This document shows positions 17,089 through 32,643 of a stretch of DNA of 64,000 bases, in pieces (position 1 is the first letter of the stretch; every line of letters starts with the position of its first letter). The notes below the pieces were generated by a model. The model was not told where the DNA came from. It saw only the letters and a program-made list of their open reading frames with translations, and did no database searches. The translations under genes and the position numbers were made by a program. Source of the DNA: a virus (lineage: Duplodnaviria; Heunggongvirae; Uroviricota; Caudoviricetes); the IMG/VR virus record IMGVR_UViG_2974586480_000001. The stretch is one strand, 5' to 3'.

Positions 17089-17478
17089 TTACTCTTCAGA
17101 GTCAGATTCACTAAGTACCTTAGCTCTTTGAAGTAGCTGTTGTAACTTAGCATCCATCTCACCTTTCGTCATTCTCTTATCATCCATCTGTACCTCAATA
17201 GAAGCAGCCTTCGGATAGATAAGATCTGAAATTTTAGCTGCTGCCTTGAATCGTAACTCTGGCGGCATCTCAGGATCTTGCATAATATCCATTAGGATTT
17301 CTTCTGAACTCAAACCTGATTCTTGTCTGGAAGCAACACGATCCAACATCAGTTGAGTCATCTTGTTACGTGAACCTTTAGGTCTTCCACCACCAGGATT
17401 CCCAGGTTTAAAGTGGTTGAGTTTGTTGTGGTACAGTGGGTGCATTTCAGAGTCTTGGTTCTTTAGATCTTCTTCCAT
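17089..17478 (-). CDS. putative terminase small subunit
   Basis: 129-aa first gene of the minus-strand operon, with a 'GNPGGGRPKGS' DNA-binding-type motif and a strong RBS (AAAGGAGGAG). Confidence 0.45.
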   Translation of the reverse strand: MEEDLKNQDSEMHPLYHNKLNHFKPGNPGGGRPKGSRNKMTQLMLDRVASRQESGLSSEEILMDIMQDPEMPPELRFKAAAKISDLIYPKAASIEVQMDDKRMTKGEMDAKLQQLLQRAKVLSESDSEE

Positions 17479-17500
17479 ATTCTCCTCCTTTAGGTTTACT

Positions 17501-17562
17501 TATGAGGTTAAGTCATAAGGATGAGAGCCTTTACTATTTCTCTGTCCATGAATAACTTAACC
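17501..17562 (-). promoter_or_regulatory. Perfect 10-bp inverted repeat (GAGGTTAAGT ... ACTTAACCTC) in the leader of the late operon
   Basis: Seen directly in the sequence. The stem encloses about 42 nt and ends 10 nt before the RBS of the putative small terminase gene. Confidence 0.4.
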
Positions 17563-17629
17563 TCAGAGTCCCACCATCCTCACCGATTTCTCCTGTTTCA
17601 TCTATCGAAATCACTCAATACCTAAGTAG

Positions 17630-17860
17630 TCCATGACACTGGAAAACATTACAAATCTTTAACACTGGAGAAAACAATAGCCTTCATGCCATGTGATAGA
17701 GATCAATCAAACACTGGAAAGAAAAGGTATAAGTTATATGGCGAAGCCTTACCTTCATGGCTAGTCATAACATGCCCAGTCATATCACACTGAAGATAGT
17801 ACATGCCCGGACATTCCCTCATGCCCCTTGATACATGCCTACTCATACAGGGGTGATAGC
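17630..17860. repeat. iteron-like short direct repeats (ACACTGGAA x3, CATGCC x4)
   Basis: ACACTGGAAAA, ACACTGGAGAA and ACACTGGAAAG lie at about 17639, 17665 and 17713. Four ACATGCC/TCATGCC copies lie within 17761-17850. Confidence 0.45.
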
Positions 17861-18119
17861 TACCTTAGGATACCCTCTCTTTTATATCGTGATTTCGGGG
17901 TATAGGAGGTATAGCGTCCTCTCTCATTTTTAAAAAGGGGAAGTGGGTCAGCTCCACACGGCACCATGTTAGTGATTACTACGCCTGAAAACCTTTTGCC
18001 ACCTCATATCCAGAGTCACTCACCTCATTAGTATCAAGTGTAATCAAAGCCCGTACACTCATTCACCTGTATATCTATCCAGTGATAAGCCATGCCACAT
18101 ACTGTATGGAATCCCAGCT

Positions 18120-18245
18120 ATGTGTATATATCCAGTGTATACCCCTCCCCCTCCCCCTGCCCCATATGGATACCCGTACAATATATGCAAGGGCCATGCC
18201 ACCTTATGGTATACAGGACACCCCATACCCCATATGGTTTACCGT
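18120..18245. repeat. C-rich tract plus two CCCATATGG palindromic boxes
   Basis: CCCCTCCCCCTCCCCCTGCCCCATATGG and ACCCCATACCCCATATGG occur about 70 nt apart. Confidence 0.35.
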
Positions 18246-19048
18246 TAATTTATTTCTTGACAAGTGTATATGAATGGCCGCCCCGTCTCTCATAAGGCTA
18301 GTATCATGTGTAACAATCACCACACAATGACCCTCTCAAATGAGAATAGATATGATTAAGGTTTACTATCAAAGGCTCCGCCCATTGATAGAAATATTCT
18401 CTTAATGAGAATTATCCTTTCCTTCTGTTTTCAGTGTTTCTTTTGTATGAGGTAAACAGTTGCGCACGGTCTGATATTGTGCTAACGGCTCTCCCTTTCG
18501 TGCGCGTTAACATGCCTTGTCAATGAGAGTCAATAGGGATAAGAGATATATTATAGTTTTGCCTGAAACTATCCTGTTTTGTCTTGTGTACAAACTAATT
18601 TTAAGGCACCTAGAAAGCGATTAGAGCGATCCAATTATTTTAATGAGCCGTCATAGCCCCCTGTTTAAAGGGATTGATTCTAGACCCCTTACAGGCTGTA
18701 TTTAACATCTCATTAACAATCATTAATATCAGGTGATATCAATAGTTGGCACGGTTATTGTAACGCGCATATGCGATCATCTACCTATTGGGGCGGATTG
18801 CTGGGGCTAGATATGTATCAGGGATTTTTATCGTTATGAGTAAAATTATTTGTTGCATTGTTTTGTAGGTGTGTCATTCTATCCGTGTTCCCAGTGAACA
18901 CCGCTCTTTAAAAACTTACCTTGATACCTCTCACAAAGGTCTATCCTTTGTTGTGTGTAGGTCGCCTAGTTGATTAGCTCCCCTTGTAAGGCCGGAAGGC
19001 ATAGAGGAATGAAAGATAAGGTGTTCACGATAGCAGCGTTAAAAAGGG

Positions 19049-19077
19049 TTTGACAGTGTGAAAGGGTAAAGGTAAAG
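19049..19077 (+). promoter_or_regulatory. candidate sigma70-type promoter (TTGACA, 17-nt spacer, TAAAGT)
   Basis: A TTGACA at 19049, a 17-nt spacer and a TAAAGT -10-like hexamer, on the plus strand. Confidence 0.3.
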
Positions 19078-19084
19078 TGAGCAC

Positions 19085-20274
19085 ACTATCACGGAAGGTT
19101 ACACCGACCCAGACCGAAAGGTTAGCCGAAAGGCTGGAAGGGCACGGATAATCAGGCCGAAAGGCTGTGATAGATAGACAAGAGGTGAGAAGGCAGAATT
19201 GCCCAAAGCCATAGGCTAGTAACCTTTTGTTAGTCGGGACGGTGGCAAACCGTCTAAGGTAGAGGCAGAATTGCCCAAGAATACACCGGCGAACACCGCT
19301 TGACAGTCCGGCGAAAGCTAGACTAGAATGGCGGCAAGGGATAAGAAGTTGTCCCGAATATCTGGCCTAGTGCCATGCCAACGGCATCAATTGCTAAGGC
19401 GACTGCTCTTTAAAAAGTTGGTATCTGGATTCGCTGTAATTGGCAAGCATTCCTAAGGGATTAGCGAGCGATTACAAAAGGTGAAAAAAGATATTGACGA
19501 GAGCAAAGCAGCCCTGTAAAGTGGGCGGAATAGTGAGGGGGAACACTTTAACAACCCTATCGCCGATAATGTAAGCGATTAGCTCATTAACAATTTGGTA
19601 AATGATTTGTTGGCTGTATGCTGGCCATACCCAACAAGTAACGGTGGATTCAAAGCGGGTAATGTAAGGGTCAATCCTTGCACGTATCAGCCAAGATCTA
19701 AGCTGAAAATCAGAGCTTAAACCGGAATAATGCGAAACGGGACGGCGGGAGCTTAGTCTGAATCATAGTGGTGCCCATTGACAAAAGGGCCACTCCCTGA
19801 GGAAACGGATTAACATTAGGAAAGTTTAACGGCCCAAGGGGGCGGCTGTAATAGGTAGTGATCGAAGTGTGTAGCGATAAGCTGTAATCATTTGCCAGAC
19901 CACTGGAAAACTGTTTTCCTAGTTGGTTAGATCCTTAACAATTTGTAATCGGTAAAGCTAACGTGAGCGGGGTAATTGACCGCAAAATCGGTTGAGGCTG
20001 AGATCGTAAAAGCTGGGCTTAAACTGTCAGCGCCCGCTAAATCAAAACGACTCAAAAACGTCCGCAAAATGTAGCGACGATCAAAGCCAAGATAGTGAGC
20101 CGACGTGCTACCCTGAAAAGTAGCGCCCGATGATAAACAGGTGAAAACCGTTTAGGCAAAGGGAAGGATCTCTAACTGGAAAGATCAGATCCAGAGGTGG
20201 CAACTCTCCAAAAGTTGCAACGTGTTAACCTAGTCAAGGTTTGCACGTTAAAGCGCTGTAATTAACAGCGTTTT
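19085..20274 (+). ncRNA. Candidate large structured ncRNA. The region is ORF-free and GNRA-tetraloop rich, and is bounded by a promoter-like site and a plus-strand terminator.
   Basis: There is no ORF of 60 aa or more on either strand. There are many strand-specific hairpins with GAAA/GNRA loops (ACCGAAAGGT, GCCGAAAGGC, GGCCGAAAGGCT, GCGAAAGC), A-rich loops with perfect stems (GCAAC-tctccaaaa-GTTGC, GGAAAAC-tg-TTTTCC) and direct repeats (AGGCAGAATTGCCCAA x2). A terminator lies at 20254..20274. Confidence 0.4.
20254..20274 (+). terminator. rho-independent terminator
   Basis: CGCTGT-AATTA-ACAGCG followed by TTTT. Confidence 0.5.
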
Positions 20275-20317
20275 ATAGTGTAAATCCGTCAGCCATCAAG
20301 TTAAGAAGGAATACCAA

Positions 20318-20998
20318 ATGACCGCTATCACTCTGCAATCCCAAATGACCGCCGCTGAAGTCAAAGCCCGCATCGTGGAAGTCGGCGAGCATGAAAAGAT
20401 CTCCAAGGCCATGATCGCTCAAGTTGCGCTGGAATGTCTGGCCCATGCCGTCCAGCACGGCGATATCACCCTGACCACCGACCTGATCCAGAACGTGACC
20501 GCCGGCAACCGTACCGCCATCGTGCTGCTGTTCAAGGAAACCACCGCGTTTTCCTACAACCAAAAGGAAAAGGCTTTCGGCAAGAAAGACAAGGCCGATG
20601 CGGAAACCTTGGCAGAAAAGGAAAAGGCCCTGCAAACTTTCCTGACCAAATATCAGGGCAATATCTGGGCATGGTACGAAAAGACCAAAGAGGACAAGAT
20701 CGTTTCTGCCAAGTTTAACGAAAAGGCACTGATCAAGCAACTCGGGGCCTATCTGGCTGAAAAGGGTCTGTCCGCCTTTGACGACAATTTTCAGACCATT
20801 CTGGCCCGTGCTCAAGGCGCTGCCGTTCAAGAGCACCACAAGGCGACCCTGATCAATGCCCGTGTGGCCGAACTCATGGAAACCCTGAATCTGGACAAGG
20901 ACGTGGCGACCATGCAAGCCGAGAAAGATTACGACGCTGGCCGCCTGACCGCTACCGCCGCCAATGATCAACCGGCTGCCGAACAAGCCGCCGCCTAA
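20318..20998 (+). CDS. hypothetical protein encoded in a GC-rich compositional island
   Basis: 226 aa with an AAGGAA RBS. The local GC is roughly 58%, against roughly 43% elsewhere. A plus-strand terminator follows directly. The antisense 247-aa ORF is judged spurious. Confidence 0.55.
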   Translation: MTAITLQSQMTAAEVKARIVEVGEHEKISKAMIAQVALECLAHAVQHGDITLTTDLIQNVTAGNRTAIVLLFKETTAFSYNQKEKAFGKKDKADAETLAEKEKALQTFLTKYQGNIWAWYEKTKEDKIVSAKFNEKALIKQLGAYLAEKGLSAFDDNFQTILARAQGAAVQEHHKATLINARVAELMETLNLDKDVATMQAEKDYDAGRLTATAANDQPAAEQAAA

Positions 20999-21016
20999 GG
21001 GCAAGTGATAAAACAA

Positions 21017-21045
21017 AGGGCTGTTATTTTGCAGCCCTTGATTTT
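21017..21045 (+). terminator. rho-independent terminator
   Basis: AGGGCTG-TTATTTTG-CAGCCCT followed by TGATTTT. Confidence 0.55.
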
Positions 21046-21452
21046 ACATTTGTCAATATGTAGGGAAATTGTATGATGGATTATTAAGCCGTTAAAAGCG
21101 GCCACCTACAAGGGCAAGTCATAATTGCCCCCTGAGTCTCACATGTTGGGAGCTGGTGTCGTGTCCAGTCAAGGTTACATATACAAAACCACGTGGGTAA
21201 AGCAGGTTAGGATCCAAAGCGACTAACTACCCGTTATAAGCGGCGAAAGAGCGACGGAACTAGGCTTGGCTACCCGCCACCGGTCGGGGTGAACCGGTAC
21301 ACAAATTATTTACTACGGCGACGCGCGTGTTAAATAGGTATCAAAAATGAAATTGACAATTGAAAACGTTAATATAATTCTTGTCCGCCTGTTACCGCTG
21401 TTAACTGATAGCCAGATAGCCAGATTAAAAACAATAACCATAGGGCTTTGAT

Positions 21453-32510: not shown

Positions 32511-32643
32511 AGGGTTAGGGCATGTAGCTCAGTGGATAGAGCAGTTGGCCCAAACCTGTGTACCCTGTGGGGGTAACTACTGCAAACCTTTTGAACAACC
32601 AATTGGTCGTAGGTTCGAATCCTACCTAGTCCTAGCCCTTCTT
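32508..32643 (+). ncRNA. tRNA-like RNA with a roughly 50-nt insertion at the anticodon-loop position, enclosed by a 13-bp terminal helix (Y-RNA/YrlA-like tRNA mimic candidate)
   Basis: There is a canonical D-arm (GCTC-AGTGGATA-GAGC) and T-arm (GTAGG-TTCGAAT-CCTAC). A short variable loop (TGGTC) is present. The anticodon stem GTTGG/CCAAT flanks a 50-nt insert (cccaaacctgtgtaccctgtgggggtaactactgcaaaccttttgaacaa). The acceptor-like stem is imperfect, but the flanks AAGAAGGGTTAGG and CCTAGCCCTTCTT pair over 13 bp. No CCA is encoded. Confidence 0.45.

Follow-up and report, generated by a model that had tools for sequence, protein, structure and literature searches.

The 2839-nucleotide (nt) region at positions 17479–20317 of the viral DNA analyzed here (IMG/VR record IMGVR_UViG_2974586480_000001, the whole 64,000-nt stretch of which is referred to below as the window) is a divergent control region between two genome arms, and its right 1.25 kb (19050–20317) is on balance likely to be the early operon's untranslated 5′ leader, a structured RNA onto which host Nus factors would be loaded to bring about antitermination. 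The region carries boxA elements that are enriched, biased in strand and position, and equal to the boxA of host ribosomal RNA (rrn) operons, together with hairpins that covary, and it holds no conserved open reading frame (ORF) and no known RNA family. Binding of Nus factors, and the antitermination that would come of it, are proposed by analogy with characterized boxA systems. Over the 2839 nt, identity to Aeromonas phage 4_4572 (MK813943.1; Lahexavirus, Grimontviridae) is 100%, and the record of that phage leaves the stretch without annotation. The region is essentially free of ORFs and is flanked by gp085 (17089–17478, minus strand) and gp086 (20318–20998, plus strand). The leftward arm of 4_4572 contains gp085, a homologue of gene 1 of Salmonella phage 7-11, along with the large terminase, portal, and head genes; the rightward arm consists of hypothetical early genes on the plus strand, in an operon of at least 44 kb that includes tRNA genes and terminator-like sites (e.g., 21016–21039).

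Related junctions and predicted early promoters

An ORF-poor junction of 1.7–2.8 kb occupies the same place in all six relatives compared (Cronobacter phage GAP52, Aeromonas phage BUCT695, Proteus phage P59, Vibrio phage Vp_R1, an IMG/VR contig, and Salmonella phage 7-11). The 7-11 junction, a long intergenic region already remarked on in an earlier paper (PMC4331800), is 2802 nt long and ORF-free, with three annotated sigma-70 promoters at least 1150 nt upstream of gene 151; primer extension validated two of these (151-2 and 151-3) as strong early promoters (Lavysh et al. 2022, PMC8948821). We read the right part of the 4_4572 junction as an early-operon 5′ leader because its position equals that of these validated promoters and the ~1.15-kb leader that follows them. 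The first strong sigma-70-like site lies ~1500–1620 nt from the start of the gp001 homologue in every Grimontviridae junction examined (seven phages), and the distance from promoter to first early gene ranges from ~100 nt in P59 up to 1240 nt in 4_4572.

Closer comparisons were provided by LAh_9, LAh_8, and LAh_6 (94.7%–96.6% identity to the 2839-nt region) and by uncultured relatives that a protein search with gp086 returned at 66%–68% identity, namely the equivalent contigs L096 and L097 (Logan SRR22000209 and SRR22000208) and contig L098 (SRR21285876). These contigs share the leader architecture of Lahexavirus, with 1.65–1.9 kb free of called genes upstream of the gp086 homologue; relative to L097 and L098 the gp086 gene has ~70% nucleotide identity, and the leader can be aligned in blocks only. 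Within Lahexavirus most of the leader is ~99% identical, and the informative positions are a divergent patch at 19100–19320 and a few other sites. Between genera, no significant leader similarity was found by blastn, nhmmer, or Smith-Waterman comparison with shuffled sequences, and the left part alone is conserved. Searches of IMG/VR with the two small flanking proteins gave almost nothing, and a search with the large terminase returned only distant loci and two Privateervirus-like contigs.

Three early promoters of sigma-70 type are predicted on the plus strand. The first, P1 (TTGACA-17-TAAAGT, 19050–19078), had been picked out in a first-pass annotation of the window made from the sequence alone; it matches the consensus, is invariant in four Lahexaviruses, and turns out to be accompanied by two more. 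P2 (TTGACA-18-TAGAAT, 19300–19329) matches the consensus at 11 of 12 positions with both hexamers invariant, while its spacer hairpin (19304–19326) varies with one compensatory pair (19311/19318). P3 (TTGACG-17-TAAAGT, 19494–19522) also fits the consensus, and its cassette shares 85% identity with the first L097 promoter. Just 3′ of the −10 elements is a G+C-rich sequence (GGCGGCA or GGGCGG, at 19079–19090, 19330–19340, and 19523–19535) that is conserved across clades and recurs at the promoters of L097, L098, and BUCT695. It recalls the discriminator of rrn promoters, likewise rich in G+C, and may link early transcription to the growth state of the host. By homology with 7-11, transcription would start at P1–P3, and the right part is very probably transcribed on the plus strand.

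boxA elements

We scanned 128 kb of strand for the published gamma-proteobacterial boxA consensus, GYTCTTTAANA (PMC5725501). Only two sites in the window match it perfectly, 18903 and 19405; each is on the plus strand and inside the junction. boxA-1 (GCTCTTTAAAA, 18903–18913) lies upstream of P1. boxA-2 (also GCTCTTTAAAA, 19405–19415) is preceded by two small hairpins and begins 76 nt past the −10 element of P2; it shares 14 of 16 bases with the host rrn boxA and aligns with a perfect boxA in both L097 and L098. A third element, boxA-3 (GCTCATTAACA, 19582–19592), has one mismatch and stands 60 nt past the −10 element of P3; with its flank (GCTCATTAACAATTTG) it agrees with the host rrn boxA at 15 of 16 bases, and its counterpart in the L097 and L098 alignment is again a perfect boxA. 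The fourth, boxA-4 (GATCCTTAACA, 19930–19940), has two mismatches and forms a module on the plus strand with the hairpin before it (19897–19927; module 19897–19940) in the three-clade alignment, the surrounding block TTGGTTAGAYCYTTAACAAT being conserved in all three clades. Hairpins flank each boxA. Six of the 13 window matches to GCTCTTTAACAA (at most two mismatches) are concentrated in 18708–19941 on the plus strand, and the motif that, along with promoter cassettes, is conserved in the blocks aligned with L097 and L098, GCTCTTTAACAA(T/C)TTG, is the rrn boxA.

The enrichment extends to the relatives. Nine junction sequences contain 14 perfect boxA elements on the early-gene strand, where dinucleotide shuffles predict 0.14 (with a maximum of two in 500 shuffles); their other strand has one. 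Perfect elements occur in seven of the nine (five of seven lineages), in one to three copies per relative, each 18–91 nt downstream of a sigma-70-like promoter. Such cassettes follow the early promoters of Lahexavirus, Libingvirus, Crifsvirus, Privateervirus, and the two uncultured relatives. Aeromonas rrn leaders read GCTCTTTAACAATTTG and then boxC (TGTGTGGG), and L097 and L098 match them over 17–19 nt; a boxC-like TGTGTGGG follows boxA in both contigs and is absent from 4_4572. The boxA of the E. coli rrnB leader was confirmed directly as tgctctttaacaattt. Capture of a host rrn leader was ruled out, as the similarity is confined to the 17–19 nt of boxA. The literature searched contained no description of boxA in these virulent podophages, which encode a sigma factor.

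Local RNA structure

The plus strand is purine-rich from ~19000 on, with 26.5% G and 20% C in the leader, and its computed fold is the more stable of the two strands (−404 versus −339 kcal/mol). Minimum free energy (MFE) z-scores are clearly negative only at 19000–19500 (−1.9 to −3.5, plus strand) and 20000–20300 (−2.5 to −5, both strands) and are ~0 in the middle of the region. The first-pass annotation had reported dozens of strand-specific hairpins with GAAA/GNRA or A-rich loops, read as tetraloops on the plus strand only. That strand specificity holds for GNRA hairpins with stems of at least 3 bp (eight on the plus strand and none on the minus strand, versus 3.2 ± 1.8 in shuffles), but the number was overstated, with only three hairpins having stems of at least 4 bp. 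The direct repeats that it mentioned include an exact 16-nt copy of AGGCAGAATTGCCCAA at 19191 and 19263.

Several local hairpins vary in ways that preserve pairing on the plus strand. The tandem GAAA-loop hairpins that the annotation had noted were confirmed as three, just past P1 (19112–19171; loops GAAA/GCAA), at 19112–19123, 19124–19135, and 19155–19166. The pair 19113/19122 changes from A-U to G-C while the loop goes from GAAA to GCAA, so that the GNRA form is kept, and a C-to-U change at 19158 allows a G-U pair on the plus strand only. Covariation likewise marks the adjoining plus-strand segment (19173–19255), made up of a branched stem (19173–19235) and a hairpin (19237–19255). The inner hairpin of the branched stem (19192–19203) has two compensatory pairs, and one-sided changes across the segment yield G-U or G-C pairs, those at 19178 and 19250, like that at 19158, being G-U pairs feasible on the plus strand only. 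A 10-nt hairpin at 19207–19216 is deleted in its entirety in the LAh phages. Directly past boxA-3 is a 14-bp plus-strand hairpin (19605–19639), in which a compensatory change within Lahexavirus turns the G-C pair 19612/19632 into A-U; the corresponding place in L097 and L098 is taken by a strong hairpin that is unrelated to it.

Farther along the plus strand, a hairpin with the loop YTGACAMAA (19767–19794) and a 5-bp hairpin (20107–20124) are conserved, with all alignment cells paired in three clades and two pairs changed on both sides in each. Together with a hairpin upstream of P1 (18461–18506, discussed below), these cross-clade hairpins are fully paired, with one or two compensatory pairs and three or four distinct sequences apiece. 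The leader ends in a plus-strand cluster of four hairpins (20134–20279) that is invariant in Lahexavirus and has the strongest z-scores of the region (−3.4 to −5 on the plus strand). The last of them (20253–20271, a stem of 6–7 bp with 3–4 G-C pairs, then UUUUAU) is terminator-like and invariant in four Lahexaviruses. A terminator had been annotated at 20254–20274; the hairpin and its U run do exist, but a consensus terminator scan called no terminator-like site on the plus strand in 19050–20317, this hairpin included, and a promoter-like sequence (TTGACT/TTGACA-17-TACAGT) sits at the corresponding place in L097 and L098.

Taken as a set, the local helices show five pairs changed on both sides within Lahexavirus and 99.9% of cells paired, a result reached by two of 500 shuffles and by none of the slid controls. 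As an independent test, local structure was predicted from L097 alone and scored on L098 (86.6% identity): in ten pairs both partners were substituted with pairing preserved, and no pair was broken, versus 2.0 kept and 3.4 broken in column-shuffled controls (MFE −295 kcal/mol for the real sequence versus −238); the minus strand suits this covariation worse. These results indicate that the leader bears many selected local hairpins. A global 1.2-kb fold was dropped, as the long-range pairing of the MFE and alifold structures lacked covariation, and local hairpins alone were retained. One long-range helix, between the boxA-4 region and 20155–20183 (−25.8 kcal/mol, z ~ −3), was not reproduced in L097 or L098. 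Comparative alignment, which the annotation had proposed as a check, yielded local covariation but no leader sequence conserved between genera.

Proposed mechanism

In characterized systems, boxA RNA is the binding site of NusB/NusE and the seed for an elongation complex that resists Rho (PMC7665894, PMC5725501). In the 4_4572-type leader, host sigma-70 RNA polymerase would start at the tandem promoters P1 (19050), P2 (19300), and P3 (19494), and the nascent RNA would expose rrn-type boxA elements at 19405, 19582, and 19930, the fourth (18903) lying upstream of P1. On the model of rRNA operons, lambdoid nut sites, and the leaders of clustered regularly interspaced short palindromic repeat (CRISPR) arrays, these elements, each with a stable hairpin before or after it, would capture host NusB/NusE(S10), and NusA, NusG, and SuhB would be recruited in turn. 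Polymerase converted in this way to a Rho-resistant form could traverse the long untranslated leader and, beyond it, the early operon with its terminators and tRNA genes. The hairpins, the excess of G over C, and the GNRA hairpins near the 5′ end may add protection from Rho and from 5′-end-dependent decay.

A number of observations weigh against this reading. Complexes of the rrn type work mainly against Rho, and the benefit at intrinsic terminators, such as that predicted at 21016–21039, is uncertain. boxA covers ~50 nt and leaves ~800 nt more of hairpin-rich RNA (19600–20317) unaccounted for. A separate transcript could stop at the terminator-like hairpin that immediately precedes gp086, and use of P1–P3 is predicted from consensus matches and from 7-11. 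boxA-1 has no strong promoter within 150 nt upstream; in the relatives, the first boxA has a weaker promoter 25–35 nt upstream. The covariation sample amounts effectively to two haplotypes within Lahexavirus and two outside clades, and the cross-clade hairpins are not significant when taken singly, their values being reached by 63–167 of 500 shuffles. Finally, no boxA within one mismatch is present in 7-11, Vp_R1, or phiEco32. Hence boxA is not shared by the whole group, and 7-11 must rely on some other antitermination strategy.

Alternative explanations

The first-pass annotation had taken the region from P1 to the hairpin at 20253–20271 for a candidate structured noncoding RNA of ~1.2 kb, either of a kind such as the GOLLD, ROOL, or HEARO class or a novel one, and such a stand-alone RNA acting in trans, a mode that has been proposed for those classes, would account for several of the same facts: the lack of ORFs, the plus-strand-specific hairpins with compensatory changes, the terminator-like hairpin with its short U run at the end, and a length of ~1.1–1.25 kb that is kept in Lahexavirus, L097, and 7-11 despite sequence divergence. 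In L097 and L098 the downstream gene has its own promoter just past the leader, which could therefore be a separate unit there. The noncoding character and the covarying hairpins stand, but the region does not behave as one unit from promoter to terminator. Membership in the named classes found no backing: Rfam 15 (including GOLLD, ROOL, HEARO, OLE, raiA, and group I/II introns) gave nothing relevant in the window at gathering score, nothing relevant in 17300–20500 at E up to 10 (best 18–20 bits versus cut-offs of 42–100), and nothing relevant in the relatives' leaders at E up to 0.1. The z-scores near 0 in mid-region and the long-range pairs that neither covary nor, in the one helix tested, are conserved also speak against a single fold. 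The predicted terminator is uncalled by the scan and not conserved outside the genus, and the gp086 of Lahexavirus has no promoter of its own and is therefore reached by read-through. Across genera, moreover, the leader varies from ~100 to 1240 nt without detectable sequence similarity. Three internal promoters and four boxA elements, with no conserved terminator and no conservation between genera, favor a cis-acting modular leader, and we consider the stand-alone ornate RNA unlikely.

The region might instead act as DNA, whether as an origin, as a packaging or terminal-repeat region, or as first-entering spacer DNA that enables transcription-driven entry of the genome, with the hairpins incidental or formed in DNA. 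In phage phiEco32 the verified physical ends (193-nt direct terminal repeats) are in the equivalent junction, the left end 1696 nt from the gp001 homologue; the near-constant spacing between gp001 and the first early promoter across genera would suit such a role, and compensatory changes would preserve DNA cruciforms as well. Yet the one-sided changes at 19158, 19178, and 19250 give G-U pairs that only plus-strand RNA could form, the minus strand suits the covariation less, and the GNRA loops are confined to the plus strand. The part of constant length and conserved sequence is, furthermore, the left half (17479 to ~19050) and not the leader, and termini cannot be located by sequence alone. 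On these grounds a DNA-level role for the leader seems quite unlikely. We give still less credence to a boxA decoy, in which an abundant leader would titrate host NusB/NusE and starve the rRNA operons of antitermination, aiding host shut-off. Four boxA copies do follow three strong predicted promoters, the motif is identical to that of the host rrn operons, and a long, stable, hairpin-rich RNA could build up, but the idea is wholly inferential. Of the four copies, two are off consensus (one at a conserved T), the relatives carry one to three copies only, directly after promoters as cis action predicts, and the 7-11 study sees no shut-off of sigma-70-dependent host transcription (PMC8948821), in a different phage and with rRNA outside its measurements.

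Left part of the junction

The left third of the junction is regulatory: judging from its sequence, a late promoter would drive gp085 and the packaging and structural arm. This promoter, a predicted target of the phage sigma factor (GTAATG-N16-ACTA, 17627–17652, minus strand), fits the late-promoter consensus measured in 7-11 (GTAAtg-(16)-aCTA; PMC8948821) perfectly, and no other site in the 64-kb window does. It stands ~150 nt upstream of gp085, whose homologue, 7-11 gene 1, has such a promoter. An overlapping minus-strand segment (17636–17724) contains three copies of a repeat with CCAGTGT (ACACTGGARAA as read on the plus strand; repeat family D10); the motif is also repeated in the 7-11 junction, and it falls in the spacer of late-promoter-like sites.

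At 17800–17951, with strand unset, an element of ~150 nt (GGATAYCCTC...GGTA..GGAGG...AAAAGGGGGAAGTGGGT) is conserved across genera. It matches Proteus phage P59 in nhmmer (E = 7e-6) and was aligned with P59, an IMG/VR contig (L012), and 7-11; packaging, terminus, and origin signals are candidate roles. The regulatory character that the first-pass annotation had assigned to the left part is borne out by this element and the late promoter. A C-rich tract (CCCCTCCCCCTCCCCCTGCCCC, 18143–18165, surrounding segment 18138–18206, strand unset) is an indel hot spot among Lahexaviruses in the alignment, and the LAh_6 record was opened at this tract, with an N there.

Nearer the leader, Lahexavirus, L097, and L098 share a conserved block (18425–18520). 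This contains, ~540 nt ahead of P1, a 9-bp G+C-rich hairpin with a long loop (18461–18506, plus strand), in which all cells are paired in three clades, one G-C pair is swapped to C-G in L098, and G-U pairs suit the plus strand only. Two further segments are hypervariable (18635–18694, with 28 substitutions in 60 nt, and 18859–18882, with ten in 24 nt) and split 4_4572 and LAh_9 from LAh_8 and LAh_6, the sequence around them being nearly identical; in the first of these, L097 looks like the 4_4572 version.

Coding potential and neighboring genes

The gap had been described as free of ORFs of 60 or more codons on either strand. This is essentially correct, with zero such ORFs in 18296–20272, but two overlapping plus-strand ORFs of 63 and 67 amino acids at 18082–18295 are exceptions. 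LAh_8 and LAh_9 have an annotated ORF of ~100 amino acids over the C-rich tract that is broken up in 4_4572, and the ORFs across this tract are not conserved. Neither it nor the pair at 18082–18295 resembles a real gene. Among the relatives we found no ORF conserved in frame; translated similarity to L097 and L098 is scattered over several frames and both strands, and the indels relative to them are not multiples of three. Hidden protein genes in the region were ruled out from these translated matches. That homologous regions might prove to encode proteins had been named as a test of the noncoding reading, and they do not: no reading frame is conserved with L097 or L098, the 7-11 junction is ORF-free, and those of the other relatives are ORF-poor. 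Inside equivalent junctions, “ABC transporter” annotations occur at 27–257 of L004 (LAh_6) and 945–1640 of L104 (phiEco32); these, and the small “hypothetical” ORFs annotated in related junctions, are probably wrong or spurious.

The first early gene, gp086, with its Shine-Dalgarno sequence (AGAAGGAA), spans 20304–20998 on the plus strand, and its homologues come first after the gap in BUCT695, L097, and L098. It belongs to PHROG 1448, which has no assigned function. Directly 3′ of gp086, a bidirectional terminator-like hairpin at 21016–21039 is succeeded by a plus-strand promoter-like site at 21050–21077. Farther into the early operon, Rfam calls tRNAs on the plus strand at 32518–32633 and 38528–38644 (46.8 and 49.2 bits), each with an insertion of ~49–52 nt at the anticodon-loop region, and ARAGORN makes no call at either locus. 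They may be intron-containing phage tRNA genes.

Comparison with known systems

The closest parallel is the rrn leader (P1/P2, boxB, boxA, and boxC, with a NusB/E/A/G-SuhB-S4 complex). Both have strong tandem sigma-70 promoters (predicted ones in the phage) with G+C-rich sequence past the −10 element, a boxA tens of nucleotides past the promoter with a hairpin just upstream, and a long downstream transcript that includes untranslated RNA genes (tRNAs in the phage). The phage boxA equals that of the host rrn leader (GCTCTTTAACAATTTG in Aeromonas, tgctctttaacaattt in E. coli), and L097 and L098 also have the boxC core TGTGTGGG after it. Unlike an rrn leader, 4_4572 lacks boxC and has four boxA elements over 1 kb instead of one per leader, with ~800 nt of extra hairpin-rich RNA ahead of a protein-coding operon; the similarity covers just the 17–19 nt of boxA. 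Lambdoid nut sites (boxA and boxB, with phage N and host Nus factors) likewise put boxA near the early promoters of a phage early transcript, where it would permit read-through of terminators into distal early genes. The 4_4572 type differs in being a virulent podophage with its own sigma factor and several boxA cassettes, and its boxA is the full rrn type, whereas the lambda form is shorter (CGCTCTTA). An N-like protein was not identified, gp086 and gp087 having no informative Pfam or PHROGs match; N proteins are small and divergent, and absence is not shown.

The same boxA consensus occurs upstream of CRISPR arrays and in the 5′ untranslated region of suhB, where it starts unusually long untranslated RNAs and blocks premature Rho termination (Stringer et al. 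2020, PMC7665894; Baniulyte et al. 2017, PMC5725501). Those are chromosomal single elements, in contrast to the viral, multi-copy, multi-promoter arrangement here. Within the family, 7-11 has the same divergent ~2.8-kb junction, sigma-70 promoters equidistant from the gp001 homologue, and an ORF-free ~1.15-kb leader ahead of a first early gene of similar size, but its leader shows no detectable sequence similarity and no consensus boxA. GOLLD, ROOL, and HEARO RNAs resemble the region in being long, ORF-free, and phage-borne, with many GNRA-loop hairpins; the region differs in its internal promoters and in lacking a covariance-model match, conserved multi-domain architecture, supported long-range helices, and conservation between genera.

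Implications

boxA-dependent antitermination is itself well known, and its proposed placement in virulent sigma-encoding podophages would be the new part. In 7-11-like phages, early transcripts must pass terminators over tens of kilobases, and the authors of the 7-11 study noted the need for antitermination, the strategy for which “remains to be defined” (PMC8948821). It is improbable that boxA modules of an abundant, stable, multi-hairpin leader both reprogram polymerase in cis and sequester NusB/NusE in trans; such a leader would divert the rRNA antitermination machinery to the phage, would define a class of regulatory RNA new to phages, and would point to how virulent sigma-encoding podophages obtain processive early transcription without an N-like protein. 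As for the early-operon leader acting in cis that we favor, rrn-type boxA elements right after early promoters provide a concrete, mutation-testable antitermination hypothesis for Grimontviridae. The long leader would be a case of rapid sequence evolution under structural constraint, and, if the hypothesis is true, virulent phages would join lambdoid prophages, rRNA operons, and CRISPR leaders as settings for boxA/Nus antitermination.

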